From Candidatus Thorarchaeota archaeon (GTDB lineage: Archaea > Asgardarchaeota > Thorarchaeia > Thorarchaeales > Thorarchaeaceae), in the NCBI GenBank assembly GCA_046482545.1, contig JAWOEX010000002.1, forward strand, positions 1 to 55,087: DNA of 55,087 bases, in the 5' to 3' direction. Each line of letters starts with the position of its first letter. Position 1 is the first letter of the stretch. The notes beneath the pieces were generated by a model. That model saw only the letters and a program-made list of their open reading frames with translations, was not told the DNA's origin and ran no database searches. The translations under genes and the position numbers were made by a program. This document shows, piece by piece, positions 31,835 through 55,087 of this stretch.

Positions 31835-31940
31835 GATGCTGAGAATGGAGGCACGCTTTCTGTGAGGTTCCGACTCAAATCTGGGCGATTGTAGGTACAG
31901 CACGAATCATACTTTCGCCCTGCTCGCCTCGGACAGTAGT
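31835..31940 (+). repeat. Palindromic intergenic repeat, copy A (full)
   Basis: GATGCTGAGAATGGAGGCACGCTTTCTGTGAGG...GCACGAATCATACTTTCGCCCTGCTCGCCTCGGACAGTAGT. Confidence 0.9.
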
Positions 31941-31985
31941 GGCGGCGAAGGAGTACTATACATTCTGATGAGCAATCCCGGCTGA

Positions 31986-32408
31986 TTATTCAAGAAACTG
32001 CAGATCATCATCAAGCATGCCAGTCTCCGTAGCGCGGACAATTTCCGCTTCTCTCCGAGCAAAAACCGCTAGACCATCCAGTACACGGGATGCAGCGACG
32101 GTGAAACAGTCAGGCAGAGAAATTGCAACTCGGCATTTGATCTTTGCATCTTCTCCCCAGACAATCCCTGTAGGAATGATTTGCACGACAGATGACTGGA
32201 TTAGGTTCTCTGTTTCATTCAAAGCGGACATCCAATCCAGTTTCCTGCAAATGATGGACGTGAATTCACTTAGAGCAAGCTCTGTGCAGGCGTAACGGTT
32301 TTCTTCTGAAGACATCTCTTTTGCAAGAGGTTTTGCAGATGGTTCACCGAGCGCCAGCGCAATCAAAACACCTGCATCAAGAACTAAGGCTTGTTGGACC
32401 TCACCCAT
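31986..32408 (-). CDS. VapC/PIN-domain toxin (family 1, copy a)
   Basis: LVLDAGVLIA, E, SLPDCFTVA PIN pattern; overlaps upstream small gene. Confidence 0.88.
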   Translation of the reverse strand: MGEVQQALVLDAGVLIALALGEPSAKPLAKEMSSEENRYACTELALSEFTSIICRKLDWMSALNETENLIQSSVVQIIPTGIVWGEDAKIKCRVAISLPDCFTVAASRVLDGLAVFARREAEIVRATETGMLDDDLQFLE

Positions 32409-32643
32409 TATCAAGGCGCCTCTCGGAGATGAGATCGTTATAGGCAGATTTGAAAGCCACTCCATGTAGTGGGGTAATGAATTCAGTCCAAGCTTCAATG
32501 TCGACTTTCTGCTTGTCGTAGACATCGACTAGTGCCTGAATTACCGTATCGAAGTCAACACGCTCTTGGTTTTTCTGTTGAATCTCACCAGCAATTCTCA
32601 ACAGTTCCCGGCGAGTCGCCTCTTTGATTGATATGGTTGTCAT
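32401..32643 (-). CDS. Putative VapB-type (RHH-like) antitoxin (family 1, copy a)
   Basis: MTTISIKEATRRELL...DFDTVIQAL; 8-bp overlap with PIN gene. Confidence 0.8.
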   Translation of the reverse strand: MTTISIKEATRRELLRIAGEIQQKNQERVDFDTVIQALVDVYDKQKVDIEAWTEFITPLHGVAFKSAYNDLISERRLDNG

Positions 32644-32686
32644 GAGTGATAGGCTATGTTGTGTTCATTGCAATACACATCAATGA

Positions 32687-32701
32687 CTGTGTTGAACACA
32701 G
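32687..32701. promoter_or_regulatory. Inverted repeat, probable antitoxin operator
   Basis: CTGTGTT-G-AACACAG; conserved as CTGTGT-CTT-ACACAG upstream of the paralog (51236-51250). Confidence 0.6.
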
Positions 32702-32951
32702 AATTCGTTTTTTCAGTATAGGGCATCAAGAGAAACCGAAATAATACAGATTTCGGCATAATCCGGGTCGGAAGTGTAAGATAGCTGTAATTTCCTCAAG
32801 ATCCGTTCATGACTGAAGACAAGAGGATTTTATTAGATCAGCTACGAGACTCCCTTTCAGTAGGGCTAGGCAAGTGGGCTAGTGCGGTAGCGCGAAGCAC
32901 ACCCAGCATTTGAGAGAGTAATTTTATCTATCCTTTTCTTATTTCAGACAT

Positions 32952-34088
32952 ATGGTCAAATTCAAGGGTTTTCAGTTCTCTATAAGCGAGTTCGCCGGAA
33001 GCTTGGGCGACTTCGGAACATTGATGCCATTCACGGTTGGTTACATAGTCCTCTGCGGCTTCAAACCCACAGGGCTAATGTTAGGGATTGGACTGACCAA
33101 TATACTCCTAGGCCTCATCTACAACCTCCCCTTGCCAGTCCAACCTCAGAAAGTGATTGGGACGGTAGCTCTAGCTGAGAAGTGGGCCATGAGACGGGTT
33201 CTCGGAGCAGGGTTCGCCGTAGGGTTAATCTGGGTGATATTATCATTATCAGAAAGGCTCAGGGACATCTTGGAGAGAATTCCCAGCAGCGTAGTCAGGG
33301 GGATCCAATTAGGTTTGGCCTTCTCTCTCGCTCTGACCGCGGGCAGTATGATGGAAGATAGTCTAATTCTTTCTTTGGCAGTCTTGGCTCTGGGACTGCT
33401 ACTTCTCCGAAGCAGATACCTCCCATCCGCCATATTCCTGATGCTTTTCGGATTCATCTATGCAACAGTAACGGGAAACCTCAATCTAGGACAGATAACA
33501 ATAGGCCTGTCACTACCAGAGGTAACCCTCTTCTCCCTAGGCGACATGGTCTATGGATTCCTCTATGCAGGCTTAGCTCAGATATTCCTGACACTGACTA
33601 ACGCTGTGGTATCAACAGTAGCCCTTATACATGAGCTATTCCCCGATAGAAAAGATGTCACTCCCCGGAAGCTGATAGCCAACATGGGAGCCATAGATAC
33701 CACTACCCCCTTCATAGGAGGGATGCCACTATGCCATGGAACTGGAGGGTTGGCGGCGCAATATCTCTTCGGTGCGAGAACTGGAGGATCTATGCTGATT
33801 GAGGGCGTTATAGAGATAAGCCTTGGATTATTCTTCTCCAATAGTCTTCAAACAATATTCGAAGCTTTTCCCGACTTCATCATAGGTGTGATGTTACTAT
33901 TAACCTCACTCGAACTTGGCAGGATTGCATTCAAGATAGAGAAAAAGAATGAGATACCCGTGCTGCTATTTACAGCGTTGATATCCACCGTCCTGAATAT
34001 TGCATACGGATTCATGGCAGGAATACTACTCTACTTAGCACTGAAAAAAGACATAGTAAAACTTGAACCAGAGAAAACCAAGACATGA
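32952..34088 (+). CDS. Putative molybdate/sulfate transporter (MOT1-like)
   Basis: EFAGSLGDFGT, PLPVQPQK, MPLCHGTGGLAAQYLFGAR; multiple TMs. Confidence 0.88.
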   Translation: MVKFKGFQFSISEFAGSLGDFGTLMPFTVGYIVLCGFKPTGLMLGIGLTNILLGLIYNLPLPVQPQKVIGTVALAEKWAMRRVLGAGFAVGLIWVILSLSERLRDILERIPSSVVRGIQLGLAFSLALTAGSMMEDSLILSLAVLALGLLLLRSRYLPSAIFLMLFGFIYATVTGNLNLGQITIGLSLPEVTLFSLGDMVYGFLYAGLAQIFLTLTNAVVSTVALIHELFPDRKDVTPRKLIANMGAIDTTTPFIGGMPLCHGTGGLAAQYLFGARTGGSMLIEGVIEISLGLFFSNSLQTIFEAFPDFIIGVMLLLTSLELGRIAFKIEKKNEIPVLLFTALISTVLNIAYGFMAGILLYLALKKDIVKLEPEKTKT

Positions 34089-34195
34089 ATCCTATGTTTT
34101 GTAGATTATCGCCTAAAGATCATTGTTTGTGGTAAGTAGCATTACATATAATGGATTAGCAGGGGAAGGGTGGAACACAGAAGCTTCATGCAGTT

Positions 34196-34366
34196 GAGTG
34201 AACCCAACTGTAGGCACCTCATCAAGGACATAATCAGTTGTTATGCGCATTCCGTACTCTGGTTGCTTCAGTTTTGTGAGAGGTCCTTAGCTCTGGTATG
34301 ATTCTTATCACGTGAGTTGAGGTATGCAATGATAACATTGCTGTCTAAGATAACGGCCACGTTCAG
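34196..34366 (-). pseudogene. VapC/PIN toxin remnant (family 2, decayed copy)
   Basis: High nucleotide similarity to the 5' part of 41421-41852; start TTG>CTG, 1-nt deletion near 34285, 3' two-thirds missing. Confidence 0.85.
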
Positions 34367-34374
34367 CTGCCACC

Positions 34375-34650
34375 CTAAACGATTTCATCCACTCTTGATG
34401 AGAGGTTCTCACTGCTAGGTCCCAAGTCCTCGGCCAAGGAGAGAACCTCTTGGATGGTCTTATCGGTCAGGGGAACTTCGCCCGCCTGTATTTCACTAAC
34501 GATACGATCGTAGTTTTCCGTGCCGATTTTGAACACCAGTTCCAGGATTTCCTTCTTGGTGAACCACTTTCCGGTATCAAGATAAACGCGAGCCTGTAGC
34601 TCTTCCAAATCAGCTTGTAGGTCAAACGTCACTGTTGACACTGGACACAC
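34375..34650 (-). CDS. Antitoxin (family 2, copy with premature stop removing YGGS)
   Basis: Near-identical to 41849-42136; TAT>TAG change four codons before the paralog's stop. Confidence 0.75.
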   Translation of the reverse strand: MCPVSTVTFDLQADLEELQARVYLDTGKWFTKKEILELVFKIGTENYDRIVSEIQAGEVPLTDKTIQEVLSLAEDLGPSSENLSSRVDEIV

Positions 34651-34668: not shown

Positions 34669-34783
34669 AAATTGTATACAGGTCTGTAGAAGTTTCTGGG
34701 ATTCCTATAAGAGATGAGATAACAAGATAGAGGGGGCACGCATTCGAGTCTATTAGCCAAAGTAGTATTGTAGAAGACGCGAT

Positions 34784-34828
34784 ATGTTGAGGAATGAGGG
34801 GCGCTTTCTCTGAGGGGCAGACTCAAAG
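34784..34828 (+). repeat. Palindromic repeat, copy B (left arm only)
   Basis: ATGTTGAGGAATGAGGGGCGCTTTCTCTGAGGGGCAGACTCAAAG. Confidence 0.85.
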
Positions 34829-34937
34829 CTCGAATGTGTGAGGCATTATCTCATCAAGATTCAGATTCCAAATCTATATGAGGTTTAGCACTGAATTGTG
34901 CACAAGTCCGTACGTAATCTTGGGGCGCGCAGCAAAT

Positions 34938-35438
34938 ATGGATAAAGACCACAAAATCACAGGATACCTCATACCGGTGTGTATCGTCATCAGTACGCTC
35001 TTCACACCATATGCCGTCCAAGAATATCGAACAATGATTTTTGCTCATGGATTTATCTGGTATTTTCCGTTCTGGAGATTTTACAATGGCTATGATGAAA
35101 GAGGTACGTTCGCATTTGTCAGAACATTTGGAATGGGATTTCCTTTTGTTCAGCTGGAACCACTGATTACGGGCGTGATTCTTGGAACAGGGATGGTCCT
35201 AGCAGGAATTATGCGAGTAGTAGTAAATGACAGCAACAAGTATTCTATGGAATTGGCTTCAGTAATCGCAGCGTTGATAATCGAAATTGGTATGCCAATT
35301 CTTGCAACACTAACTATGGAAACCGATATGGCACCCTCGTTCTTAACGGGGTTGGTGCCTGTTCCAATCCCTGCTATACTTGCAATCATTGGACTTGTCT
35401 ACATTCATAGAGGTAGGGTTGATTCTCATTCGCTTTGA
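34938..35438 (+). CDS. Hypothetical multi-pass membrane protein
   Basis: About 4 hydrophobic segments, C-terminal VPVPIP; start set at MDKDH. Confidence 0.7.
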   Translation: MDKDHKITGYLIPVCIVISTLFTPYAVQEYRTMIFAHGFIWYFPFWRFYNGYDERGTFAFVRTFGMGFPFVQLEPLITGVILGTGMVLAGIMRVVVNDSNKYSMELASVIAALIIEIGMPILATLTMETDMAPSFLTGLVPVPIPAILAIIGLVYIHRGRVDSHSL

Positions 35439-36705
35439 TACAAATGAGACCTCTAACTATGGTTATACATACTCATCGAACTTCCCCACAGTCGATGCAT
35501 ATAATTCAACCCTCGGTGGATCACCGGACTGTTTTGTGACCAAGCTTGCAAGTGATGGCCAGTCACTTGTTTATTCCACATTCCTAGGAGGGGGAAGCAA
35601 TGAATGGGGACAGAGTATTGCGGTTCAAGATGGCTATGCTTATGTCACGGGCTTCACGTACTCATCAGACTTTCCCACCGTCAATGCATATGATTCGACG
35701 CATAATGGTAGTAGTGACTTTCTCGTGACCAAGATTGCAACTGATGGGCCGTCACTGACTTATTCCACCTATCTAGGAGGTAATAATGATGATGAAGGGC
35801 AGGATATTGCAGTTGAAAATGGCCATACCTATGTCACGGGCTACACATGGTCATCAGATTTTCCCACCACCAGTGCCTACAATTCGACTCACGGGGGCAA
35901 TAGAGACTGTGTCGTAGCAATCCTTTCTCAGGACAGCGATTCCGATGGATTGCTGGACTGGGAAGAGGATATTTTCTACGATTGTGACCCGTATTGCATT
36001 GACACGGACAACGACAATTTCCTTGATGGCTATGAAGTAGAGTATGATACCAACCCGACAAATCCAGCAGAGTACCCAGCCATGCCACAGGTATGGTACG
36101 ATAAAATCTACGAGAACCTTGATGGGAATGCAACCCTGCTTCAGCAAGTACTTTCTTGGCTTGACGGAAACCATAGAGCCATCGAGACGCTGTTCACGTA
36201 CGTGGAAGGAAATGCCACGCTTCTGCAGGAGGCAGTTGTTGCTCTGGATGGAAATGCAACCCAATTGGGCCTCGTCGCGGCTCTGGCAACAGACAATCAA
36301 GAATGGTTACAGAGTCTCAATTCCACAGCGATTGGAAACATCACTGAAATCAGAGAGGTGCTTGACCAACTAGGCGTAACTGTTGGCGATACTGATTGTA
36401 ACGGGCTTGATGACCTAGATGAGATCGCTGAGGGCACAGATATTCAGTGCATAGATACCGACTGCGATAACCTGAACGATGCCTATGAAATCGAAATAGG
36501 TACCGATCCCTTGGAGAAAGACACAGACCAAGACGGTTATGACGATGGCCATGAGATTATGAGCGGAACTAATCCGCTTGATGCTGCGGACCACCCCGGA
36601 ACGGGAGTATCGACTGTCATATTGGCAATGGCCGGTACTGCTGCGATTGTCGTTTTGATAGCAATCGTCCTGTTCATTTTGTGGAAGCAAAGAGCGAGCA
36701 GCTAG
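35380..36705 (+). CDS. N-terminally truncated SBBP beta-propeller repeat protein with DxDxDG (TSP3-like) Ca-binding repeats, coiled segment and C-terminal TM anchor
   Basis: Repeats YVTGxTxSSDFPT..AY.STH.G..D, DSDSDGLLDWEE, DTDQDGYDDG, hydrophobic tail plus KQR; similarity begins mid-repeat at about 35461, no signal peptide. Confidence 0.75.
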   Translation: MQSLDLSTFIEVGLILIRFDTNETSNYGYTYSSNFPTVDAYNSTLGGSPDCFVTKLASDGQSLVYSTFLGGGSNEWGQSIAVQDGYAYVTGFTYSSDFPTVNAYDSTHNGSSDFLVTKIATDGPSLTYSTYLGGNNDDEGQDIAVENGHTYVTGYTWSSDFPTTSAYNSTHGGNRDCVVAILSQDSDSDGLLDWEEDIFYDCDPYCIDTDNDNFLDGYEVEYDTNPTNPAEYPAMPQVWYDKIYENLDGNATLLQQVLSWLDGNHRAIETLFTYVEGNATLLQEAVVALDGNATQLGLVAALATDNQEWLQSLNSTAIGNITEIREVLDQLGVTVGDTDCNGLDDLDEIAEGTDIQCIDTDCDNLNDAYEIEIGTDPLEKDTDQDGYDDGHEIMSGTNPLDAADHPGTGVSTVILAMAGTAAIVVLIAIVLFILWKQRASS

Positions 36706-36709
36706 AGAT

Positions 36710-36758
36710 AGTCATACATTCCGTCTGCCCGCCTAGGACAGTACTAGCGGTGAGCTGA
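36710..36758 (+). repeat. Palindromic repeat, copy C (right arm only)
   Basis: AGTCATACATTCCGTCTGCCCGCCTAGGACAGTACTAGCGGTGAGCTGA. Confidence 0.85.
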
Positions 36759-36778
36759 AAACTCAACGATAGAGAATT

Positions 36779-36916
36779 TCATCGCTTCTTGATATAGACA
36801 CCGACTATGACCACCACTACACCTATCGCGGCACCAGCCCCAAGTACGGACAGCATCGGGTCTATTCCTTCAGGGTTTGTTGTTCCGGTGGTTGTAGTTG
36901 GTATTGTTGCAGGAAA
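36779..36916 (-). pseudogene. Orphan C-terminal Thr-rich linker plus TM anchor remnant
   Basis: Manual translation FPATIPTTTTGTTNPEGIDPMLSVLGAGAAIGVVVVIVGVYIKKR*. Confidence 0.75.
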
Positions 36917-37132
36917 TCTTACAGAAATCTTACACTTTTGCACTCGGATTTTCAGAATTTTTGTAAAACTCGCATAATCATGATTCCACTCCCTACGAGC
37001 GTGTTACTAGGTATGCTTCTTGTAGGATTCTATGACCCTCGGACAGAAAACGAGTCCTTCAATGATCTAGATGAAACATGAGCGAACGGAAACGGGAGAA
37101 ATCGCAGTGCGCTTTCAGTTCTGCTTGTTCGG

Positions 37133-37654
37133 TCATTGAAGCCAGCTGGGTGCATCTTCGGGTGGAGGGTATCTTTTGATAAAGAAATAGCCCAAAATGA
37201 GAGTTAGAGGAGTTGGAAAGATCGGCCAGAATGGGAAGCCTGGATTTGTGAAGTCATAGAGGAGGTTGGGTATGTTCAGTATCATAGGAGGTATGAATCC
37301 AAGACTGCCCACCGCGAAAGCTCTCCTAACTGTTAATTTGCGCTTATAGACACGATACATAAAGTATGCAAAGAGAATCTGGGGGCCGCCGATGAAGATA
37401 AGGAGCGGCAAAAGAGGGCCAAAGTTCGCAAAGTGAAATTCGATATAAGGGGAAGATTGTAAATCACGAAGTTGAAACATCCAACCGCCAGCCCATATTA
37501 CGAGATAAGAAGGGTCGTATTGAACCCAGTTAGGAAGAACAAGGGCACATACCGATAGAATAACGCCTACCTCTGCAGGAAAATAGTCATACCGCTCCTC
37601 TTCTTTTGGTTCTCCTTTGGTCACTCCTAATCTCCCCTTGTTTGGTGCATCCAT
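37133..37654 (-). CDS. Hypothetical multi-pass membrane protein
   Basis: About 4 TM segments, PIFPTP and RYPPPE..WL tail. Confidence 0.75.
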   Translation of the reverse strand: MDAPNKGRLGVTKGEPKEEERYDYFPAEVGVILSVCALVLPNWVQYDPSYLVIWAGGWMFQLRDLQSSPYIEFHFANFGPLLPLLIFIGGPQILFAYFMYRVYKRKLTVRRAFAVGSLGFIPPMILNIPNLLYDFTNPGFPFWPIFPTPLTLILGYFFIKRYPPPEDAPSWLQ

Positions 37655-37736
37655 TCACTGTAGCGAGACAATACTTTGAAGTATTGGTTTTGTCAGAGTT
37701 AGGATGTCCATTTATCTGTCCTAGGAGTGAAAAAGA

Positions 37737-39194
37737 TTGTGTAAAGAAGCAGCATGGAAATGGATTGTAGAACATGAATCCAAAATGGTAGCAGTCAGCG
37801 ACAGAGTTTGGGAATTTGCTGAGCTTGGACTCCAGGAATTCAAGTCTGCAGCCTTGATTGCTGATACATTGGAAGAATTCGGATTCGAGGTAGAGCGCGG
37901 AGTCGCAGATATGCCAACGGCATTTGTGGCTTCTTACGGAAGCGGCCATCCGGTAATAGGCATCATGGGAGAATATGATGCACTACCCGGCTTGTCACAG
38001 AAACCAGTAACGCATAAAGAACCACTTGAAGAGGGGGCGCCAGGGCACGGTTGCGGCCATAATATCCACGGCGTATCTGGAATGGCAGCGGCTATTGCAG
38101 TTAAACAGTCCATAGAATCGAATAACATCGATGGGAGTATCAAGTTCTTTGGTTGCCCAGCCGAGGAGAACTACAGTGGCAAGATGTTCATGGTAAGAGA
38201 TGGGCTGTTCGATGATGTCGATGTTGCGTTGAGTCATCACCCAGGGGCCTTCAACTGGGCAGGTATTGGAAGCTCTCTAGCGGTGAACTCGGTGAAATTC
38301 CATTTCCATGGTGTTTCAACGCATGCAGCTGCTTCACCAGATCGGGGTAGAAGTGCTCTGGATGCAGTGGAACTTATGAACACTGCCGTGAATTACATGA
38401 GGGAACATGTCATACAGGAAGCACGTATCCACTATGTTATTGAGAGAGGGGGGATGCAACCAAATGTTGTTCCGGCCTATGCTCGAACATGGTACTATGT
38501 ACGAGCTCCTGAACGCAATCAAGTAGACCACATTTACGAATGGATTTTGAGAATAGCAGATGGTGCCGACTTGATGGCCCGAACAACTCATGAAGTTGAG
38601 TTCTTGGAGGGCACATACAATGTGCTTCCGAACAAGAAACTCAGTGATATAGTCACAGTCAACATGAGAGAAATTGGCACGCCTCAATACACGGACGAAG
38701 AGATGGATTTTGCAAATGAATTGTTAGAAACCATCCCTAGGGAAGAGAAGATGGCAGCCCTGAGACAAACAAAACGGCCTGGCTGGGAGGACCTAATGGA
38801 TGTGACTATGGACAGGTCAATCCCTGATCCTTGGGATGAGGGTAGAATCTGGCCTGGATCCACTGATGTCGCAGACGTAAGTTGGGTAACACCCACGCTA
38901 GAGTTCAATACTGCAACATGGGTACTCGGAGTTCCAGCACATTCTTGGCAAGCGGTAGCGCTAAATGGAATGAGTATCGGTCACAAGTCGCTGATTTTCG
39001 CTGCCAAAGTAATCGCCGCTTCATCTCTTGACCTGATTATGAAGCCAGAACTATTAGAGAAAGTATATGATGAGTTCAAGGAGAGGAAGCACGGCCGGGT
39101 TTATGGATCGGCTGTTCCTCAAGATATCAAGCCTCCCTTGGAAGCAGCTAAGGAGGCTGCAGAAGCTTCGAGATATGTTCATACCAAATCTTGA
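37737..39194 (+). CDS. M20 amidohydrolase, AbgB-like (p-aminobenzoyl-glutamate hydrolase subunit B family)
   Basis: GEYDALPGLSQ, GHGCGHN, GCPAEE, GRSALDAVELMN, GSTDVADVSW, HSWQ. Confidence 0.9.
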   Translation: MCKEAAWKWIVEHESKMVAVSDRVWEFAELGLQEFKSAALIADTLEEFGFEVERGVADMPTAFVASYGSGHPVIGIMGEYDALPGLSQKPVTHKEPLEEGAPGHGCGHNIHGVSGMAAAIAVKQSIESNNIDGSIKFFGCPAEENYSGKMFMVRDGLFDDVDVALSHHPGAFNWAGIGSSLAVNSVKFHFHGVSTHAAASPDRGRSALDAVELMNTAVNYMREHVIQEARIHYVIERGGMQPNVVPAYARTWYYVRAPERNQVDHIYEWILRIADGADLMARTTHEVEFLEGTYNVLPNKKLSDIVTVNMREIGTPQYTDEEMDFANELLETIPREEKMAALRQTKRPGWEDLMDVTMDRSIPDPWDEGRIWPGSTDVADVSWVTPTLEFNTATWVLGVPAHSWQAVALNGMSIGHKSLIFAAKVIAASSLDLIMKPELLEKVYDEFKERKHGRVYGSAVPQDIKPPLEAAKEAAEASRYVHTKS

Positions 39195-39235
39195 CAGCTC
39201 TAGGTGCAGCACGAATCATCCTCTCGGACTGCCCG
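39185..39235 (+). repeat. Palindromic repeat, copy D (centre and right arm)
   Basis: CAAATCTTGACAGCTCTAGGTGCAGCACGAATCATCCTCTCGGACTGCCCG. Confidence 0.88.
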
Positions 39236-39236
39236 G

Positions 39237-41397: not shown

Positions 41398-41420
41398 TCG
41401 CTCTGCTCGCCTCGGACAGT
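41398..41420 (+). repeat. Palindromic repeat, copy E (right end only)
   Basis: TCGCTCTGCTCGCCTCGGACAGT abutting the vapC stop codon. Confidence 0.8.
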
Positions 41421-41852
41421 CTATCTATTGGACACTAAGGGCACAAGTCCATCAAAATCAGAATCGTAAGTTGCCAAGTACTCGATATCGTTCTTGTCCA
41501 TAAATGCGATGATACAACAGTCTGTAAAGCTCAATGGTTTCTCAGGCCAGCTTGCGAGCGTCATCCATTTTTCCCAAGCTATGTCAAGGGTATCAAACCC
41601 GACACGGGCGAACTTGATAAAATCAGGTCTGTGGCAAATGAGGTAGTATGCCTTTTCTACAATGGATTTTTGGTGAGTGTGATTCCATAATGTAGTAAGC
41701 ACTTCATCGAGGACGTAGTCAATTGTTATGCGCGTGCCATACTCCGGCCTCTTCAGTTTTGTGAGAAGATTTCTAGCTCTGGTATGATTCTTATCACGTG
41801 AGTTGAGCAACGCAATTATGACATTGCTATCTAAGAAGACAGCCACATTCAA
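41421..41852 (-). CDS. VapC/PIN toxin (family 2, intact)
   Basis: VFLDSNVIIA, DYVLDE, LSFTDC, LATYDSDF. Confidence 0.92.
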   Translation of the reverse strand: MNVAVFLDSNVIIALLNSRDKNHTRARNLLTKLKRPEYGTRITIDYVLDEVLTTLWNHTHQKSIVEKAYYLICHRPDFIKFARVGFDTLDIAWEKWMTLASWPEKPLSFTDCCIIAFMDKNDIEYLATYDSDFDGLVPLVSNR

Positions 41853-42136
41853 CTGCCACCATATACAATTTCATCGACTCTTGATGAAAGGTTCTCACTG
41901 CCAGGGCCCAAGTCTTCGGCTAAGGAGAGAATCTCTTGGATCGTCTCATCAGTCAAGGGAACTTCTCCCGCCTGTACTTCGCTAACAATACGATTGTAGT
42001 TCTCCGTGCCGATTCTGAATGCCAGTTCCAGAATGTCCTTTTTGGTGAGCCGCTTTCCAGTATCAAGATAAAGGCGAGATTGGAGCTCTTCCAAATCATC
42101 CTGCAAGTCAAACTTCACCGTTGACATGTTGGGCAC
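41849..42136 (-). CDS. Putative antitoxin (family 2, intact)
   Basis: Small gene overlapping the PIN start by 4 bp; C-terminal SSRVDEIVYG. Confidence 0.8.
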   Translation of the reverse strand: MPNMSTVKFDLQDDLEELQSRLYLDTGKRLTKKDILELAFRIGTENYNRIVSEVQAGEVPLTDETIQEILSLAEDLGPGSENLSSRVDEIVYGGS

Positions 42137-42219: not shown

Positions 42220-42308
42220 CTGAGGGGGATATTGCTTTCTTGAGGCTCAGACCAAATCTGACAGCTCTAGGTGCAGCATGAGCCATACTTTCAGTCTGTC
42301 GCCTCGGA
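42220..42308 (+). repeat. Palindromic repeat, copy F (near full)
   Basis: CTGAGGGGGATATTGCTTTCTTGAGGCTCAGACCAAATCTGACAGCTCTAGGTGCAGCATGAGCCATACTTTCAGTCTGTCGCCTCGGA. Confidence 0.9.
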
Positions 42309-42399
42309 AATCACGAACAGTAGGAAACAACCAATAGATGAAAATCGTACTTCGACCACAAAGAACAAGATTGAATATACTTTGTTGCCGTAGTTTAGA

Positions 42400-44395: not shown

Positions 44396-44472
44396 TCCAA
44401 TGATAGTCTAGATTGGAGATTCGCCCACCTACTTTGGTCTTTTCTATTCTAAGTCTGTGCTGCCTCTATTCC

Positions 44473-47121: not shown

Positions 47122-47170
47122 TGATTTCACCATCTAAAAGGGATCGCAATCGTGGACCTGGCGACTCCCC

Positions 47171-47204
47171 ATGTATCTGCATAGATATGTCTGTCTCGAT
47201 ATAT
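47171..47204. promoter_or_regulatory. Tandem palindromic operator 1
   Basis: ATGTATC-N6-GATATGTC-N6-GATATAT between divergent copA and YHS gene. Confidence 0.7.
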
Positions 47205-47276
47205 TTATATTGTTGTCGGTACGAATACGATTGTAATAGACAGTCAATCTCGGATGAGACTGAGGAGTTAGATAAC

Positions 47277-47426
47277 ATGGAAGTAGATCCTGTTTCCGGA
47301 ATGAAAGTCGATGAGAAGACTACAAAATTCACGTCAGAATACGATGGAAAAACGTATTATTTTTGTTTGGAGATGTGCAAGAAAGAATTTGATGAGGATC
47401 CCTCAAAATACCTGACTGACCAGTGA
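47277..47426 (+). CDS. Stand-alone YHS/TRASH domain protein (putative copper chaperone)
   Basis: MEVDPVSGMKVD...YDGKTYYFCLEMCKKEF; GAGGAG SD. Confidence 0.85.
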   Translation: MEVDPVSGMKVDEKTTKFTSEYDGKTYYFCLEMCKKEFDEDPSKYLTDQ

Positions 47427-47868
47427 TACGTCAACGATACGAGAGTTGGACAAGAATCCCCAGAAAATCTCTGACTCAATTCTGAGTTGTTTCTGCCATC
47501 CAACTTGTCCGATTCCCTTTTTCCAATCAACAGTGAATTGCTTGTTATATACGAAAAAAGGACAGCCCAGTAGCTATTCCAGTTAGATTGTTAGGCCCCT
47601 TGAGTTGGAGTAACCAACCGTACATGAGTCACCTGGTATCCGTGATGATGAAGACTTTATTCGCGATTTCGTCATATACAGCAAACTGAGAATGACCATG
47701 AGAACATGCATTAGGATTAGACAGAATTTTACATTTACCTCTTTCGACACCGTTTTTGATCAAGCACTTGTATTGACAAGATGCTTGGTCGAAAGAAAAA
47801 AAGGAAATGGAGCAGATTATTGACTATTTCTAAGCTGTTTTTGTTCGCGTGTTGTTCAAAGTCGAAGT

Positions 47869-48339
47869 TCATTTTGTTCTGTCTGCTATGAAAGCGGCGG
47901 CACAATGAGGACAACAAAATGCCAAGACCTTGCCATCAACTTCCTTATGATAGCCCCCATCAAAGATTCTAACTCCACAGCTTGCACATTTGTCCAAAGT
48001 TGGTTCAATAGCTGATGCCGTTATAGCGGAAAAACGTCGGAAGAGCCTCTCGCAAAATTTCTCACCTTTTTCGGATAGATAATAGACTTTCTTTGGCCTC
48101 TTGCCTACAGATTCATCTATTTTATTGACTAGGCCCTTATCTTCTAGCTTCTGAAGAAATGGATAAAGCGTGCCAGCACTGAGGGTCTTTCCCGTTCTAC
48201 TCTTGAACTTCTTGATCAGAGCGTAGCCATGGTTTGGTTCTTCACTCAAGAGAAGAAGTATGTAGAATTGAGAGAAGTCGGATAGGATCTCTTTCATGTC
48301 CTCTTCTCGTCCAATGTTATCTTTGTGGTTTGAAGTCAT
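47869..48339 (-). CDS. PadR-family regulator with C-terminal Cys-rich TRASH-like domain
   Basis: HGYAL, SAGTLYPFL, KKVYYLSEKG; CASCG...FCCPHC. Confidence 0.88.
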   Translation of the reverse strand: MTSNHKDNIGREEDMKEILSDFSQFYILLLLSEEPNHGYALIKKFKSRTGKTLSAGTLYPFLQKLEDKGLVNKIDESVGKRPKKVYYLSEKGEKFCERLFRRFSAITASAIEPTLDKCASCGVRIFDGGYHKEVDGKVLAFCCPHCAAAFIADRTK

Positions 48340-48542
48340 TTCGCCATCCCCATTTCATTTTTCCTTTGATGACATAATTGAAAAGCCCATGAAACTGCTT
48401 GTCTCCGTTTACGGACTGTGTCAGCATCTAGCTGAACTCTCTTTTACAAGGAATTAAGACTTATGCTAAGGCCAGAAGAGGAAGCCCGTTGCACAGAATC
48501 TGCGTTTCTCAGATGGGTTTATTGATATCTGTCAATATCGAT

Positions 48543-48977
48543 TTATGCAGAATTATCGCTAAGGCGCCTAGTTCCTGGTGACCAGAGAATGGCAAGAATT
48601 CCGCCTACGATTCCGAGAATGAGGCCTAATCCCATTCCACCCATCCCTCCGAATATACTAAAGGCAGATAGAACTATGATGATTGCACCCCAAGTCCCGT
48701 GTTTACTGGGATTTCTCCTTAGCATCTCTGAAGATACAATTATTCCAGCTCCCAAAATGATGCCAACCACTCCGAAAACATAGCCAAATGAACCGAAGTT
48801 CATGAAGTGGAAATGCTGTTCGGTCGGATGCATAAATGAATCATACCAGTTCATCCATTCGACTGACCAATTTAATCCCATAAATAATACCCACAGTAAT
48901 CCAACAACAGCGATTACCAATCCTGCAAGGATTGATAATACATATGCCTCCATGGGCCTTTCATTACTCTGTGTCAT
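48543..48977 (-). CDS. Hypothetical Gly-rich membrane protein with Met/His-rich loop
   Basis: 4 TM; WMNWYDSFMHPTEQHFHFM loop; GGMGGMGLGLILGIVGG. Confidence 0.8.
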   Translation of the reverse strand: MTQSNERPMEAYVLSILAGLVIAVVGLLWVLFMGLNWSVEWMNWYDSFMHPTEQHFHFMNFGSFGYVFGVVGIILGAGIIVSSEMLRRNPSKHGTWGAIIIVLSAFSIFGGMGGMGLGLILGIVGGILAILWSPGTRRLSDNSA

Positions 48978-49073
48978 TTTCCTAATCTCTCCTTATCCCG
49001 ACATGGCAAGAATCATATGCAGGCCAAAGTCGGAATTCTCTTTTTGACGTATATTTATGGCGTGGGTTTATTA

Positions 49074-49107
49074 ATATATCCATGTGGATATATCCATGTT
49101 GATATAT
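49074..49107. promoter_or_regulatory. Tandem palindromic operator 2
   Basis: ATATATC-CATGTG-GATATATC-CATGTT-GATATAT. Confidence 0.75.
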
Positions 49108-49297
49108 GCTAGTGAAAGCGGGCGTTTTTGCGAACTATATATTATTCTTTGAAACTTCTGTCGCATTATGTGTTGTCTCAAGGTTGCAAGACTTATAGGT
49201 CATGCATCGTTTCTCATACTTTTCTGTCCAAGATGGGGCTCATAAATCAGCTTCACTTTTCACTCTGATAGAGCCCTCTTGTTGTTCCTTCAATTTA

Positions 49298-49540
49298 TCA
49301 TGAATTCAGTATCTTCCGGAATTCAATTTCAAGTTTGGATCCGCAATAAGGACACTTAGCGCTCACTGGTCCAACCCACTCAACCTGTTGAGAATGGATA
49401 GAGGCACCACATTCTGAGCACTCATCTGGAATTTGAGGGATTGCCAGTTGTGACACACTCTCGGGTTCCGAAGAGTCAGTATTATCCAAACCTAGTTTTG
49501 CAAATATTGTTCGCCACGGAATTTTAGGTCCACATCCCAT
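49298..49540 (-). CDS. Small zinc-ribbon protein
   Basis: MGCG N-terminus; CSECG...CPYCG. Confidence 0.75.
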   Translation of the reverse strand: MGCGPKIPWRTIFAKLGLDNTDSSEPESVSQLAIPQIPDECSECGASIHSQQVEWVGPVSAKCPYCGSKLEIEFRKILNS

Positions 49541-49598
49541 TGATCATCACTTCCTTTAGATCACGCTTCATCAATACAATATTGCAGTACCCTATTAA

Positions 49599-49632
49599 AT
49601 ATATCGAGATAGATATATCTATTGAGATATAA
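49599..49632. promoter_or_regulatory. Tandem palindromic operator 3
   Basis: ATATATC-GAGATA-GATATATC-TATTGA-GATATAA. Confidence 0.75.
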
Positions 49633-50045
49633 ATTATTCGCGTTGTTATCGGAGTTGAACATGTATGTTGCTTCCTAAGAAATAGTAAGCAAAGAAATAT
49701 CTATATGAGACAGAGATTCTCTGGACCATGTACACACATTACAGTCTTTGCTGCACCTGAAATTACTAATCAGAAAGCGATTCCCTTCGTTTGAGAGAAA
49801 TTTGCTTCTATTCCTTCTAGAACAAGCCCTAAACACAAAGCTAATTGATCTCTGATTTCTTTCGAATGAAAATGACAACTGCAACAGCCATCAATGCGAA
49901 GGTAACCCAGAAGAATGGATTCCGAAGGAAATGCAGTATAGGGGGGAGGCTCAGGCATAACGGCGACGCTTTCGAACTAGGTCGAGGAGGTGTTCAGTCT
50001 CCAAGGTTGATGCAACTATTAATATTAGGAAACCAATGCCGACTT

Positions 50046-50249
50046 ATGCCAATTGTCAAAGTCAAGTTATGGGAAGGCGTATCGAAGGATGCTGTAGAAC
50101 GCATAATATCCGGAATTACTGATGTCTTTGTTGAAATAGGGATTCCGGAGCGAGCTGTTGAAATAGTTGTTCAAGAAATCCCGAAATCCCACTGGGGAGT
50201 AGGGGGCAAACCGGCTTCAAAGGCTATGCCAGACGAGGAACCGCCATAA
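50046..50249 (+). CDS. 4-oxalocrotonate tautomerase family protein
   Basis: MPIVKV (catalytic Pro1), ITDVFV, EIPKSHWGVGG. Confidence 0.9.
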   Translation: MPIVKVKLWEGVSKDAVERIISGITDVFVEIGIPERAVEIVVQEIPKSHWGVGGKPASKAMPDEEPP

Positions 50250-50311: not shown

Positions 50312-50389
50312 GGCAAGTATTGTGTCTCCATCAGTAGTATTAACCACATAGTCGGTCTCTTCTCACATTCATTCTATTAAGACAAAAAA

Positions 50390-50490
50390 GATGCTGAGGA
50401 TGGAGGTACTGTTTCACTGAGGTCCTGCTCAAATCTTGACAACTCTAGGTGTTGCACGAGCTATATTTTCGGTCCGCTCCCCTCGAACGG
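50390..50490 (+). repeat. Palindromic repeat, copy H (full)
   Basis: GATGCTGAGGATGGAGGTACTGTTTCACTGAGG...CAAATCTTGACAACTCTAGGTG...TTTTCGGTCCGCTCCCCTCGAACGG. Confidence 0.9.
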
Positions 50491-50535
50491 AAGGAAGTGA
50501 AGGGAAAGGTGTATTCTGATAGGCAAACTAGTAGA

Positions 50536-50958
50536 CTATTCAAGAAATTGCACATCATCAGTAAGCAGGCCAGTCTCGATGGCGTTCACAATTTCAGCTT
50601 CTCTTCGAGCAAAGACGGGCAGTCCATCCAACACACGAGAAGCACCAATTGTGAAACAATCAGGCAAAGCAATAGGAATGTGGCATTTGATTTTGGCAGC
50701 TTCCCCCCAGACGATCCCGGTAGGGATGATTCGGACAACAGATGAATGGATTAGATTCTTCGTCTCATCCCAGGCTGACTTCCAATCTAGCTTTCTGCAT
50801 ATGATATACGTTAATTCACATAGAGCGAATTCTGTACAGACATAACGATTCTCTTCCGAAGGCATCCGCTTAGCAAGATCTTCTGCAGATGGTTCGCCGA
50901 GGGCTAGTGCAAGCAGAACGCCGGCGTCAAGAACCAGGACCTGTTGAGACTCACTCAT
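50536..50958 (-). CDS. VapC/PIN toxin (family 1, copy b)
   Basis: Close paralog of 31986-32408 (LVLDAGVL...LPDCFT...QFLE). Confidence 0.88.
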   Translation of the reverse strand: MSESQQVLVLDAGVLLALALGEPSAEDLAKRMPSEENRYVCTEFALCELTYIICRKLDWKSAWDETKNLIHSSVVRIIPTGIVWGEAAKIKCHIPIALPDCFTIGASRVLDGLPVFARREAEIVNAIETGLLTDDVQFLE

Positions 50959-51193
50959 TGTCAAGACGCCTCTCAGAGATAAGGTCACGATAAGCGGATT
51001 TGAAGTCCACCCCCGCTAATGGCGTCACAAATTCATTCCAAGCTTCAATGTCGACCTTCTGCCGATCATATATATCAACTAACGCCTGAATTACTGTATC
51101 GAAGTCAATGCGCTCTTGAGTTTTCTGTTGAATTTCACCAGCAATCCTCAACAGCTCTCGCCGAGTTTTTTCTTTGATAGATATGGTTGTCAT
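50951..51193 (-). CDS. Putative VapB-type antitoxin (family 1, copy b)
   Basis: Close paralog of 32401-32643. Confidence 0.8.
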   Translation of the reverse strand: MTTISIKEKTRRELLRIAGEIQQKTQERIDFDTVIQALVDIYDRQKVDIEAWNEFVTPLAGVDFKSAYRDLISERRLDNE

Positions 51194-51395
51194 GTTATGA
51201 GAATTATTTTGTGTTTACTGTAATAAACATAATGACTGTGTCTTACACAGATAATGTCAAATAATTGGTAGCATCCACAATAAACAGATCACAAATAGAT
51301 GCTCACGTCATCATCTACCTTGTTTGCCCTAACGTGGATTTCACTTCCATCCCGATATGGAATTTCGACGCAGTTCCAATCCCCCACTACCACAT

Positions 51396-51474
51396 CACAT
51401 CTTGACAACTCTGGGTGCAGCACGAGTCATACTTTCGGTCTGCTCGCCTCGGACAGTAGTAGCGGTGAGCTGAA
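51396..51474 (+). repeat. Palindromic repeat, copy I (centre and right arm)
   Basis: CACATCTTGACAACTCTGGGTGCAGCACGAGTCATACTTTCGGTCTGCTCGCCTCGGACAGTAGTAGCGGTGAGCTGAA. Confidence 0.9.
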
Positions 51475-51491
51475 CACCTAGCTGTGAGAGA

Positions 51492-51632: not shown

Positions 51633-52481
51633 CTATCTGATTTCTGAATCCTTTGACCAGATTACGACAGTGATAGAAGTTCCGACAATTAGTGGAACAA
51701 GCTCCACTGTGGGAAGTCGCTGAATGAGTGTCTGAATCTCTTCATAGCCCCAGTAGCAGGTCAGTGAGCCGTTGATAGAATGATCCGAATGATTCGATTC
51801 GGAACCACTCTGAACGAACCACTGGCCAAGTTCTCCTTCAAGTTTTCCAATCTGAGTATCATTGAATTGGTTTTTGTATCGAATCGACATGAAGCCTAGA
51901 ATACGTACCGTAGCATCGTCCTTGACTCCAACGGATAGTGATCGAGGTTGAGCAGCTTCATCTAATTCCTGGACTTGGTAGAAATCGACGGATAATAGGT
52001 CAGTAACAGAATCATATCGTATGTAGAAGCCATCAGAAACAATATTGTGCGATGGTGTTTTACTGTTTATTGAGGTGACCATAGGAACAACAGTCGCCAC
52101 CTCTTCTCTCGATGTGCCATTCGTCACTTCCAAAAAGAATCCGAAGCGCACTGTTATGTTGTATTCCGAGCTCTTTCTATGGGGATAGGGGTTAGATGGG
52201 TCTATGCTTGTCCCGTTCATATAGTCGAACCCGTATGCAAACTGGAAGAACACTCGAAAAGTCTCAAACCCTACAGCTTCAGGTATGCTTGTGTTTCCAG
52301 GTTCAGAAGGCAAATGTGCGAGAGGGTAGTGGATACCATCAACACTGGGACTGACATAGCCGCCTGTTCTGGCTATGTGTTCAAAGGTCCCCAAGTGTAC
52401 TTCTGTCATCCGCCACCTCTCGTCTGCAAGATACAATCCTGAGAATATCAGGCCCGTAGTAAACAGCATGATTGCTGCCAT
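51633..52481 (-). CDS. Hypothetical protein with N- and C-terminal hydrophobic segments
   Basis: 282-aa ORF; no family recognised. Confidence 0.65.
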   Translation of the reverse strand: MAAIMLFTTGLIFSGLYLADERWRMTEVHLGTFEHIARTGGYVSPSVDGIHYPLAHLPSEPGNTSIPEAVGFETFRVFFQFAYGFDYMNGTSIDPSNPYPHRKSSEYNITVRFGFFLEVTNGTSREEVATVVPMVTSINSKTPSHNIVSDGFYIRYDSVTDLLSVDFYQVQELDEAAQPRSLSVGVKDDATVRILGFMSIRYKNQFNDTQIGKLEGELGQWFVQSGSESNHSDHSINGSLTCYWGYEEIQTLIQRLPTVELVPLIVGTSITVVIWSKDSEIR

Positions 52482-52570
52482 CTGTGCGGCATTCCACAGT
52501 ATACTCCGGTCTATTCTCGTAGCCTCCCTTGAATCATGAACTCCTTCTATCGACCATTTGTGCGATATGT

Positions 52571-54715
52571 CTAGTCGATTGTATAGTATCTTCCCTCCAC
52601 AACAATAACGAAATCTACTGGCTTTGAACGTTCTTTTCTACATTCAAAGTAGAGATAGATTTTTTCGCCGGGTGATAGATTGGCATGGACATCATCGGAA
52701 TATTGAAGTTCGCCAAGAACACTTCCTTTTTCGCTATGGATCGCTTCTTGGAGCTGCATCCTTTGGATTTCAATCTGATGCATAGGCTTTGTATCAATGC
52801 CAATGAAGTCGAGTTTGTGATGTGCGGTCCAAGTCAACCTGACTATTAGGGGCTCTGTAGTCTGACGAGCTAGGGATTCTGCAATCGGTATGACATTATG
52901 AGACCATCTAATCCGGGGTATAACAACTGCAATCTCACTCCAACCATTAATGGTTTTGATATCAACATGAATAGAGAATTTCTGATCTGCATCAGCTCTC
53001 ATGACTAGTCTGGCACCACTCTTGAACTGAGCATTTTCAAATTTCAGGATGACTTCATCACCTTTTTCGCCTGAATAGTAGTCTCCATCTTCGCACCCTA
53101 ACAGATTCGCAATATTAGTCTCGTTGTTTGCCCATGCCTCCTCCGGGGGATGGGGAGACATGTAAGACATAATATCACCGCTGGGCGTTATACCAACCCG
53201 AGTGGCGGCATCATGACTTACGGCGAGCAGTTCAACCTCATCGAGCGAAGAGACCTCTTGTTCAAATTCAGAAATCATAAGATGACGCATGCCATAGCGA
53301 GGCAGCGGATTGGTTGCAAGCTTATATCTATCAACCCAATCAGATTCTCCCCCAAATATCTCGGATTGGGGCAGTAGGTTATTATCTAGAGCGTATCCCG
53401 TACCATTCCATTCACTAACGAAAGGACATCCGCCTCCGTCCTCATAGATGTAGTCATACATGTTCAAATCAAACATGTTTCCACCATAAAACCGGAGGGC
53501 CCAATTATCCCCATATGGCTGAGTCCACGACACATGATGGGTTGTCTTAACTATATGAGTATTCGTAAACTGAATCTTCGCAGACGCTCCGAATACATCC
53601 TTCCTCTCCACATCGAAACCGAAAACATGGGTATGACTATCACTATCAGTGATTTTCAGGTTCATTCCGTTGAGCTGGGGTATCCGCCATTCCCCTCGAT
53701 ACTCATCACGGGTTTCAGATATGCCCTGTGCCCCGTCTAGTTCATCTACACTCATTGTATACCATTTATCGATGAATTCCCTTTGGAAATCGCCTAAATC
53801 GTGCCAGAATAGACCATCATGATACATTATGGAACCACTCTGGTAGATATGCCTGAATTCTCCTAATCGGGTCCTTACATCTCCATCGGTTGCGACAGTC
53901 GGATCCTGGATGTCCAATTCAAATGTAATCGTATCTTCATAGGTATAGGAGCCCCCAAGACCGGTCGCTTCTATTTCTGATTCGAAGGTCATTTCCTCCT
54001 CATCATAGTTGCTCATGTAGAACTCGTGTATTACGCCGGGTTCTGAGTCAACAAGTGCGACAGGATGCCACTGATTGATAATCTGTTCGTTTTCAACTAC
54101 CAAATACGTGGTGCCGTATAACCACACCATATCGCCTTCATCATCGGGAGAATTTTCAGGGGTTTTTCGTACTCCACGTTTTCTGCACGCAGTCTCGAAC
54201 CTATGTTGATCTATCAAGACTGGTGGAGATGACTTGTCATTTTGAGAATATACTGCAATATGATTGTCAGGAATGTCGATGTTCTTAAAATCAGGTAGCA
54301 AGTCAACACTAACTGAATGATTTGAATCTGGTCGCATTTCAACGAGTAACTTCTTTTGGTCTTCTGACTCACTTATCCTGAATTCCTGGTATGCATGTGA
54401 ACCGGCTCCTATATCTTCATCAATAGTTCTTGCAAGAAGATAGTAGTCGCCAGGGACAAGCCTTGTTTCCGCCATCCCAAGACCATTAGATAATAGCGTG
54501 CTCCATTTTTCTATAGAACCCACTTCGTGAATTACTATTTTCACATCTTTTGCCGGATCACGTTCTCCTGCAATATCAATGGAAACCGGAACCTTGCTAT
54601 CTGGGAAGTTTCCCTCATTTGGATTCGTAGCTCCTACGAATAAAGCTAGGAGCAAAACTATCATCATAACGCATACTGAAATTGACCTTCTATTCCCGAA
54701 ACTCATCTCTACCAA
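52571..54715 (-). CDS. Secreted hypothetical protein with C-terminal GGCPF..WNG beta-rich domain
   Basis: Signal peptide (RRSISVCVMMIVLLLALFVGA); GGGCPFVSEWNGTGYALDNNLLP...DRYKL...EFEQEVSSLDEVELLAVSH. Confidence 0.8.
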   Translation of the reverse strand: MVEMSFGNRRSISVCVMMIVLLLALFVGATNPNEGNFPDSKVPVSIDIAGERDPAKDVKIVIHEVGSIEKWSTLLSNGLGMAETRLVPGDYYLLARTIDEDIGAGSHAYQEFRISESEDQKKLLVEMRPDSNHSVSVDLLPDFKNIDIPDNHIAVYSQNDKSSPPVLIDQHRFETACRKRGVRKTPENSPDDEGDMVWLYGTTYLVVENEQIINQWHPVALVDSEPGVIHEFYMSNYDEEEMTFESEIEATGLGGSYTYEDTITFELDIQDPTVATDGDVRTRLGEFRHIYQSGSIMYHDGLFWHDLGDFQREFIDKWYTMSVDELDGAQGISETRDEYRGEWRIPQLNGMNLKITDSDSHTHVFGFDVERKDVFGASAKIQFTNTHIVKTTHHVSWTQPYGDNWALRFYGGNMFDLNMYDYIYEDGGGCPFVSEWNGTGYALDNNLLPQSEIFGGESDWVDRYKLATNPLPRYGMRHLMISEFEQEVSSLDEVELLAVSHDAATRVGITPSGDIMSYMSPHPPEEAWANNETNIANLLGCEDGDYYSGEKGDEVILKFENAQFKSGARLVMRADADQKFSIHVDIKTINGWSEIAVVIPRIRWSHNVIPIAESLARQTTEPLIVRLTWTAHHKLDFIGIDTKPMHQIEIQRMQLQEAIHSEKGSVLGELQYSDDVHANLSPGEKIYLYFECRKERSKPVDFVIVVEGRYYTID

Positions 54716-55055
54716 ACTGTGTAGGATACTAGATTTAGATAATATAAGGCCTCCAAGGTCGCGCTAGAAGCCGCCAAGAGCCCCAATCTAAGCCATTTCT
54801 GAATCCAAGGAAGAAACAACTTGGAAAAAGACCAAATACTGCAAAGTCTAATCTAAACATTCGGACAATAATTCATAATGGATAATGCGACAGGAAAGTA
54901 CCAGAAAAGGCGAATTGGTAGTGAAGACAATAGCCATGTACAGAACATGGTTTTACCGTTCCACAAAGCACAGCTATGAAGGTTTCTAAAGTGAAAATCA
55001 AGACAGAGCTCGATCTATTATTTATGGCCCCTTCAATGCGAAGAACAATTGAGAA

Positions 55056-55087
55056 ATGCTGAGGATGGAGGTACTGCTTTTCTGAGG
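55056..55087 (+). repeat. Palindromic repeat, copy J (left arm, cut by window end)
   Basis: ATGCTGAGGATGGAGGTACTGCTTTTCTGAGG, nearly identical to copy H start. Confidence 0.9.

Follow-up and report, generated by a model that had tools for sequence, protein, structure and literature searches.

The stretch of DNA analyzed here (the window; 55,087 nt) is the entire contig C32 of a Candidatus Thorarchaeota genome (G000; 3.05 Mb, 98.9% complete, 45 contigs), and between positions 31798 and 55087 it carries accessory genes separated by a short intergenic repeat. Named proteins from shared 90% clusters carry the label Candidatus Thorarchaeota in two cases and Lokiarchaeota in one. In a preliminary description this repeat was taken for a novel ~105-bp element delimiting an integron-like array of gene cassettes. 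The present study reveals that the repeat is the displaced tail of the archaeon's own 23S rRNA gene. In genomes in which the link is assembled, the displaced tails lie behind the rRNA gene; the tails join the neighboring DNA at variable positions, exchange sequence with one another, and undergo erosion. The array is probably an additive gene island anchored at the rRNA gene, for which a dedicated recombinase is not required; its cassettes would be captured by illegitimate joining and shuffled by homologous recombination.

The Repeat Is the Displaced Tail of the 23S rRNA Gene

Searching with a profile of the copies identified ten of them at window positions 31798–55087, with E values of 3e-42 to 7e-3, and all ten point the same way, as had been claimed. 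Ten of the 11 copies listed previously thus hold, while the one placed at 50281 reached only E 0.27 in the profile search, which is not significant. The reported absence of the repeat from the first 31.7 kb, which contains housekeeping genes, was borne out, the best profile match there having an E value of only 0.74. The repeat is not, however, a uniform unit of ~105 bp, since copy lengths range from 14 to 272 nt, nor is it palindromic: single-strand DNA folding of both strands of four copies gave z scores of −0.73 to +1.35.

The identity of the repeat is revealed by its longest copy, at the end of contig C2, which runs unbroken into the 23S rRNA gene (RF02540, C2:80561–83864); the repeat is therefore not novel. 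An Rfam search of the window itself returned no match because the tail fragments are too short, and it was this continuity that identified them instead. Read on the window minus strand, a copy comprises the last 0–66 nt of mature 23S rRNA, an 80-nt trailer containing the 3′ arm of the bulge-helix-bulge (BHB) processing stem, and a U-rich tract that constitutes the terminator. In the native copy, the leader and trailer form a duplex of −93 kcal/mol in which the BHB consists of a 4-bp helix with two 3-nt bulges. Moreover, in an RNA contig from a related population, sampled in a salt-lake metatranscriptome, the trailer is fused to the leader, the joint following the second base of either bulge (ACCTAG joined to TGCTGC); this ligated sequence represents the native gene's circular pre-23S junction. 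A BHB processing stem and a circular pre-23S intermediate are described for archaeal pre-rRNA (10.64898/2026.03.23.713588), and the native tail is exactly this element, complete with the ligated junction in RNA. The displaced copies differ in having no partner leader upstream and thus cannot form the stem in cis; they would act as DNA homology blocks and possibly as terminators.

The displaced tails of the window, all on the minus strand, are as follows. Here and below, signed positions are counted from the 3′ end of mature 23S rRNA, negative values lying inside 23S.

31798–31948, −: most distal displaced tail and boundary of the array to the housekeeping block, with 31 nt of mature 23S, BHB arm and U-rich tract; also present in a 97%-identical relative (L179)
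34779–34833, −: tail eroded on its 5′ side, starting at +32 and retaining only the stem base (profile E 9e-5)
36710–36762, −: 23S part only (−40 to +3), the stem arm deleted
39177–39244, −: degenerate tail (−9 to +42) overlapping the stop codon of the M20 peptidase gene
41398–41420, −: remnant of ~21 nt (−18 to +2; E 0.007), the junction being longer in genomes G001 and G002
42220–42312, −: tail from −19 to +77
43304–43407, −: tail from −21 to +71
50353–50493, −: tail from −17 to +80 with U-rich tract
51395–51482, −: tail from −45 to +41, matched by the RNA contig that carries the BHB-ligated native pre-23S junction
55022–55087, −: tail cut by the contig end, continuing in C17 or C45 (191-nt overlaps)

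The tails do not begin at a fixed point. Among 74 displaced copies in three genomes of the genus, starts range from −66 to +67, with one at −193, and 62 of the 74 lie inside mature 23S; the stem base is reached by 63 of 78 copies when the native tails are included. The upstream junctions fall into 58 independent families with 45 start points and no base preference. Even young copies, which are 96.6–100% identical to the native tail, start at approximately −167, −146, −91, −56, −26, −12, and +66, and these seven different starts indicate that there is no fixed crossover among them either. A suspected pile-up of the longest copies at −192 or −91 proved unsupported. The downstream junctions are also variable, with six copies sharing ~130–300 nt of flank before they diverge. 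Erosion alters the picture further: five copies on the main path of the assembly are eroded on their 3′ side, all of them inside the window, and later deletion can shift a junction, the same gene meeting its tail at −91 in L179 and at +33 on contig C31. The previous observation that genes usually stop 0–50 bp from a copy is correct only in part. A co-oriented gene precedes 43 of 66 copies, and it ends within 50 nt in 24 of these 43 but not in the rest; the gene that follows is co-oriented with the copy in 32 cases and convergent in 37.

Arrays Lie Behind the 23S and 16S Genes in Many Related Genomes

G000 contains 35 distinct 23S-tail copies, the native one and 34 displaced, which share one orientation on any given contig and occupy 8 of the 45 contigs: C32, at its right end; C13, C17, C18, C19, and C45 (wholly array); the end of C2; and a single copy on C31. 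This clustering supports the earlier view that the repeat is not a plain miniature inverted-repeat transposable element. Indeed, a transposable or insertion-sequence (IS) end was rejected, as the tails lack the dispersal in both orientations displayed by a ~530-bp element of the same genome (41 copies on 20 contigs, 24 plus and 17 minus). Overlaps between contig ends form the chain C32–C17–C13–C19, with branches to C45 and C18, and the 23S array therefore measures at least 75 kb. Its copies are spaced 0.7–7 kb apart (median 2.3 kb), and the window is most likely the far end of an array that starts at the 23S gene. The branches from C32 to C17 or C45 and from C13 to C19 or C18 may be duplicated cassettes rather than population variants; flank depth is ~2.5–3x.

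In G001, G003, G005, G246, G268, and others, the 23S gene and the copies are on one contig, where the copies are downstream of the gene and co-oriented. Displaced 23S tails are found in 20 genomes of the family with at least ten genus labels (G000–G005, G016, G021, G238, G242–G246, G253, G258, G259, G263, G267, and G268). No 23S copies were present in the 9–38 kb stretches examined of G009, G012, G015, G025, G030, G236, G241, G251, and G256. Few tails occur outside the main array, namely the one on C31 and those on C64 and C128 of G001. The lone tail on C31 (L022:8589–17926) is followed by a RadA paralogue and a gene that was judged by eye to be TBP-like, and the gene that precedes it sits inside the array in L179. 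Scans of metagenomes and of GTDB gave one short match each. A 3.4-kb contig binned in a bacterial metagenome-assembled genome (MAG) starts with 82 nt (L177:1–82) identical to the C45 copy and diverges from it inside the stem; it is a misbinned variant or an assembly chimera.

Self-comparison of G000 revealed, besides the 23S array, only one other, a second array of ~31 kb behind the 16S gene (C2:1488–32926; L095:1488–20000 and L096:1–12926). Here the repeat combines the 16S trailer with a variable part of the gene that follows, and its sequence is unrelated to the 23S tail. The 16S array of G000 contains five trailer copies and one gene tail without trailer, and the 16S and 23S genes are 79 kb apart on C2. 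Arrays behind 16S are also present in G001, G004, G005, and G028, the last belonging to another Asgard family, and G000 has no array at 5S. That another array, built from an unrelated repeat, has formed behind 16S speaks against a single sequence-specific site. Distal copies in G000, G001, and G028 carry short pieces of a gene that is still whole behind the native tail.

Cassettes Are Shuffled and Tails Are Mosaic

Outside the array, the window contains a conserved housekeeping flank. The array intervals, and a dispersed element that interrupts them, are listed below; no strand is given where none was assigned.

25335–31354: housekeeping flank encoding aCPSF1, a SepF-like protein, a Hel308-like helicase, a PUA protein, and Lsm
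31986–34650: cassette(s) with a PIN VapC-like gene and upstream small gene, an MFS_MOT1 transporter gene, and a second antitoxin-like gene whose toxin is truncated; L179 keeps the 3′ part of the truncated toxin and has one extra tail
32691–34230 and 36861–37133: dispersed ~530-bp non-coding element, two halves of which flank the MOT1 transporter gene
34878–36705, +: cassette with a surface-protein-like gene (SBBP and TSP3 repeats, internal 189-nt duplication)
37133–39194: cassette with a small gene of no known family and an M20 peptidase gene, with other neighbors in G001
39237–41309, −: cassette with oligopeptidase B (PtrB), adjoining M20 in G002 but not next to it in G001
41421–42136, −: cassette with a VapBC-like pair (VapBC-2), relatives of which occupy other positions in G001 and G002 and lie behind the 16S gene in G005
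42400–43286, +: cassette with an MNT-HEPN pair (Polbeta and HepT-like)
44075–50249: multi-gene interval with a cation-efflux fragment, a CopA-type P-type ATPase, a PadR regulator, a DUF6114 protein, and a tautomerase
50536–51193, −: cassette with a VapBC-like pair, 76% identical in DNA sequence to the pair at 31986–32643
51633–54715, −: cassette with two genes without Pfam or NCBIfam match, the 5′ flank recurring on contig C13 at 97% identity

The four intervals that had been named as holding a single module do so, encoding oligopeptidase B (Peptidase_S9), a PIN pair, the Polbeta and HepT-like pair, and a second PIN pair. The modules of the window stand in other orders in G001 and G002, and module order also differs in a 97%-identical genome; these differences in content and order between relatives support the proposal of a platform for gene capture and shuffling. 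GCA_964448665.1 is 96–97% identical to G000 from the housekeeping block to window position 35457 and then has different cassettes and an extra tail, and in L179 a tail is joined into the middle of the surface-protein-like gene at this same position. In relatives that are more distant (79%), the same housekeeping flank adjoins other genes and is free of tails.

All seven cassette-end junctions that are shared between positions or species continue into different flanks. The presence of different DNA after the tail at every recurring junction indicates that exchange takes place inside the tail. Consistent with this, the tails are mosaic, with all four gametes in 156 of 171 site pairs, and linkage within them decays from an r2 of 0.27 at 1–5 nt to 0.04 beyond 15 nt (permutation p 0.0005). 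In two copies of G263, the allele of a 23S variable helix differs from that of the resident gene. Across the array, overall identity correlates with position (rho 0.48, p 0.017), and trailer-only identity gives no significant correlation.

The annotated cargo consists of small accessory modules, among them one DDE transposase. A cassette on C13 (L023:4920–6627) encodes DprA and a phosphoribosyltransferase (PRTase) that match ShosA and ShosT in PADLOC, and one on C17 (L024:301–2508) encodes a 735-aa protein with an Arf/Roc-like small GTPase domain, the cassette-end junction of which recurs in G001 and G002.

No Recombinase Was Found for the Arrays

The preliminary description placed the recombinase outside the window. 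Tyrosine recombinases (PF00589) gave no match in the 98.9%-complete G000 or in five other array-bearing genomes (G001, G002, G003, G021, and G028), in a search in which all 14 controls were matched. More broadly, no tyrosine recombinase, even a XerA-like one, was found in the near-complete G000, G001, G002, G003, G021, G025, and G028. G000 is also without match to PF00239 (serine recombinase), PF01548 (IS110), PF16795 (SSV-type integrase), PF01867 (Cas1), and PF00078 (reverse transcriptase, RVT_1). It has one IS200-type Y1 transposase, on C24 and away from the array, and it has RadA. No IMG/VR contig carries either tail, a search that covered exact patterns only.

A Model for the Origin of the Arrays

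We favor as probable a model in which general recombination suffices. Incoming DNA from a related lineage would bring an rRNA end with its tail and cargo and would pair with the rRNA gene of the recipient, no other anchor in the genome being as conserved. The far end of the incoming DNA would then join illegitimately within ~200 nt of the rRNA 3′ end, pushing the old tail and the array downstream; alternatively, a local duplication begun at the heavily transcribed terminator could yield the same product. Deletions may subsequently trim the redundant DNA to 50–250 nt of homology, short enough to persist and sufficient for an occasional RadA crossover. Crossovers between rRNA gene and tail or between tails would insert, excise, and reorder cassettes within and between species, toxin–antitoxin pairs and useful cargo would be retained, and the copied terminators may insulate the cassettes from rRNA read-through. 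The distal copies with pieces of the next gene and the differing 23S allele in two G263 copies fit this capture mechanism.

Several points weigh against it. The model is weakest in leaving the clustering of the joins within ~130 nt unexplained; nor does it account for the terminator being kept in nearly all intact copies. Secondary deletions move junctions, and an older fixed site could therefore be hidden; the four-gamete counts may also stem from recurrent mutation, and the polarity of the array is weak. No capture or excision event was observed. The data are contigs only, and all joints in the matched contigs can be explained by paralogous copies; the joints between copies, which have short sides, therefore show neither circles nor strain variants. 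The physical link between the 23S gene and the array was not assembled in G000 itself. Finally, the genomes are MAGs, from which an integrase may be unbinned, so that the absence of enzymes is not absolute, and no family-wide marker of DNA uptake was found, full DprA being only sporadic cargo.

Viruses or plasmids with their own integrase could instead have used the rRNA 3′ end as attB, replacing it by a copy of their own as happens at tRNA genes, and accreted in tandem; the integrase and part of the displaced end would be deleted later and the cargo left behind. The layout indeed matches that of tRNA-gene islands of the additive kind, with their partial tRNA repeats (PMC7771536, PMC5217437), the junctions are demonstrably eroded, and an integrase could be a transient visitor. 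Nevertheless, we regard such accretion as unlikely: no integrase remnant was found in G000, G001, G002, G003, G021, and G028 despite ~75 displaced tails in G000–G002, the youngest copies begin at seven different positions, neither tail is on an IMG/VR contig by exact pattern, and the annotated cargo consists of small accessory modules, although viral and plasmid core genes were not searched for systematically. A further group of explanations invokes an enzyme that escaped recognition. In one, considered doubtful, a dedicated Asgard capture machinery would recognize the ends of rRNA transcription units, through stalled transcription or the processing stem rather than a DNA sequence, and would place foreign DNA at them, leaving a long variable duplication and assembling arrays as large as those of integrons without any known recombinase. 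In another, which we hold to be somewhat more doubtful, an unrecognized host enzyme or mobile element would cut at the rRNA terminator and, in the manner of an integron, insert DNA with a long variable target duplication; as in such duplications, the two ends of the duplicated segment are sharp and variable. A candidate for either role is a giant Cas4-like/RecA-fold protein with a TnpB/Cas12f-like partner, found behind 16S and described below. Its family is present in all eight genomes with a 23S array among G000–G024, a copy is at or near the 16S tail in six genomes, and its modeled fold includes nuclease and RecA-like domains. However, the pair is found at four other G000 sites with no tails nearby, a search of G028 did not reveal it despite the 16S array of that genome, and the pair is itself cassette-like, being bounded by a tail in G004. 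The scored flanks of its putative guide-RNA elements match neither tail beyond 8 nt, and the cassette ends have no motif in common.

The integron interpretation is largely refuted, and a true integron or cluster of attC sites lacking integrases (CALIN) with a noncanonical attC and an integrase elsewhere in the genome now appears scarcely tenable. Co-oriented intergenic repeats, cassettes of 0.7–7 kb (median 2.3 kb), and many toxin–antitoxin pairs suggested it, and Asgard genomes do carry integrons (10.1101/2022.02.06.479319). However, the repeat is an rRNA tail without hairpin, the crossover position varies, gene orientation is mixed, and no tyrosine recombinase was found. The earlier remark that the RYYYAAC/GTTRRRY core is absent is accurate, paired cores occurring in no copy and single motifs near two of the ten. 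It is also very improbable that the tails are retro-copies, that is, 5′-truncated cDNA made from the 3′ end of pre-rRNA and put in place by target-primed reverse transcription. The 5′ ends of the tails do vary, and their shared 3′ end coincides with the U-rich end of the transcript, which speaks for such an origin, but G000 has no RVT_1 match, the copies are co-oriented on few contigs rather than dispersed, and their starts are not piled up at the BHB cut. Moreover, the cassettes contain divergent genes and upstream regions and are therefore not transcript-like.

Relation to Known Systems

We class the array with the additive islands at stable-RNA genes, from which it differs in anchor and repeat. 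In the additive flexible genomic islands at tRNA genes, such as fGI1 of Ca. Actinomarinales (PMC7771536) and those of Alteromonas (PMC5217437), cassettes likewise pile up behind a stable-RNA gene, each with a direct repeat of a segment of that gene, and move between species and genera. Here, however, the anchors are the 23S (RF02540) and 16S genes rather than tRNA or tmRNA genes, the repeat includes the BHB arm and terminator and reaches up to 34 copies per genome, the junctions are scattered instead of sharing one att core, and six array-bearing genomes yielded no integrase. The sedentary chromosomal integrons and CALINs, those of archaea among them (Ghaly et al., 10.1101/2022.02.06.479319), share with the present system a long array of small accessory cassettes, co-oriented repeats, abundant toxin–antitoxin pairs, and a reshuffled order, but here there is no IntI, attI, or attC hairpin, genes run both ways, and the crossover is not at a fixed base. 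Thus, the system works like an integron without being one.

The proposed capture step resembles homology-facilitated illegitimate recombination, in which a homologous anchor and a nonhomologous join insert DNA without a site-specific enzyme. This process is usually accompanied by deletion of recipient DNA. It is known from transformation experiments in S. pneumoniae, A. baylyi, and P. stutzeri, as summarized in PMC2884548, whereas here it is only inferred and would, in addition, have to duplicate the end of the anchor and to have operated at a single locus dozens of times.

Direct repeats of tens to hundreds of nucleotides also flank the inserts of IS1549 and IS1634, which generate long variable target duplications, and of the rDNA retrotransposon R9. 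The variable length of direct repeats around inserted DNA is a feature in common; the arrays differ in that the cassette ends have no common sequence, no reverse transcriptase was found, and their inserts are cargo of unrelated kinds instead of a single element.

Cassette arrays with rRNA tails were not found described in the literature searched, a search that most subscription papers lay outside. The arrays point to the site at which, and plausibly the way in which, Thorarchaeota along with other Asgard archaea acquire accessory genes, namely behind unlinked rRNA genes, with the rRNA tail itself as the cassette boundary. The genes acquired include toxin–antitoxin pairs, a ShosTA-like DprA–PRTase pair, metal transporters, surface proteins, and an Arf/Roc-like GTPase. 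If an integrase is dispensable, then general recombination alone can give cassette arrays on the scale of integrons, and searches with attC or IntI profiles would miss them. On a practical level, the tails break assemblies and produce short false 23S and 16S matches, and they offer a simple marker for mining Asgard accessory genes.

A Giant Protein Paired with a TnpB-Like Gene

The giant protein is 1400–1900 aa long and combines a Cas4-like PD-(D/E)xK nuclease domain with a RecA/KaiC-fold domain, as read from an alignment-based model with a predicted local distance difference test (pLDDT) score of 87 (35 for the single-sequence model); it has no Pfam or PHROG match. At all four intact G000 sites it is divergently paired with a TnpB/Cas12f-like gene of ~560–610 aa. 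The protein occurs in multiple copies. Searches detected it in 18 of 25 genomes of the family but not in any of 16 genomes from elsewhere in the Asgard archaea. The pair looks like an undescribed TnpB-associated system, and its loci are as follows.

C28:881–8802, C28:133568–141476, C20:228653–234820, and C23:117543–124089: giant protein and TnpB-like pair, G000
L124:749–7934: giant protein locus in G005, behind 16S
L095:1628–3511: giant protein remnant

A gene convergent on 16S, entertained as an integrase, proved to be a 3′ piece of this multi-copy protein, which matches no Pfam or PHROG family. The possibility that TnpB guides are aimed at the tails was rejected, the best match of the flanks of 41 putative guide-RNA elements being 8 nt, which is at chance level.

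Other Features of the Genomes

The dispersed ~530-bp element is also found at the 3′ ends of TnpB-like genes, and for this reason it is probably a guide-RNA or IS605-derived miniature element. Several 16S genes are split or longer than the model (the C2 start and C33 end in G000, C23 in G006, C2 in G011, and L127, L128, and L129), and three of them have a short insertion near the 3′ end, which suggests BHB introns. Finally, ARAGORN identified a selenocysteine tRNA at C34:60819–60909 of G000.

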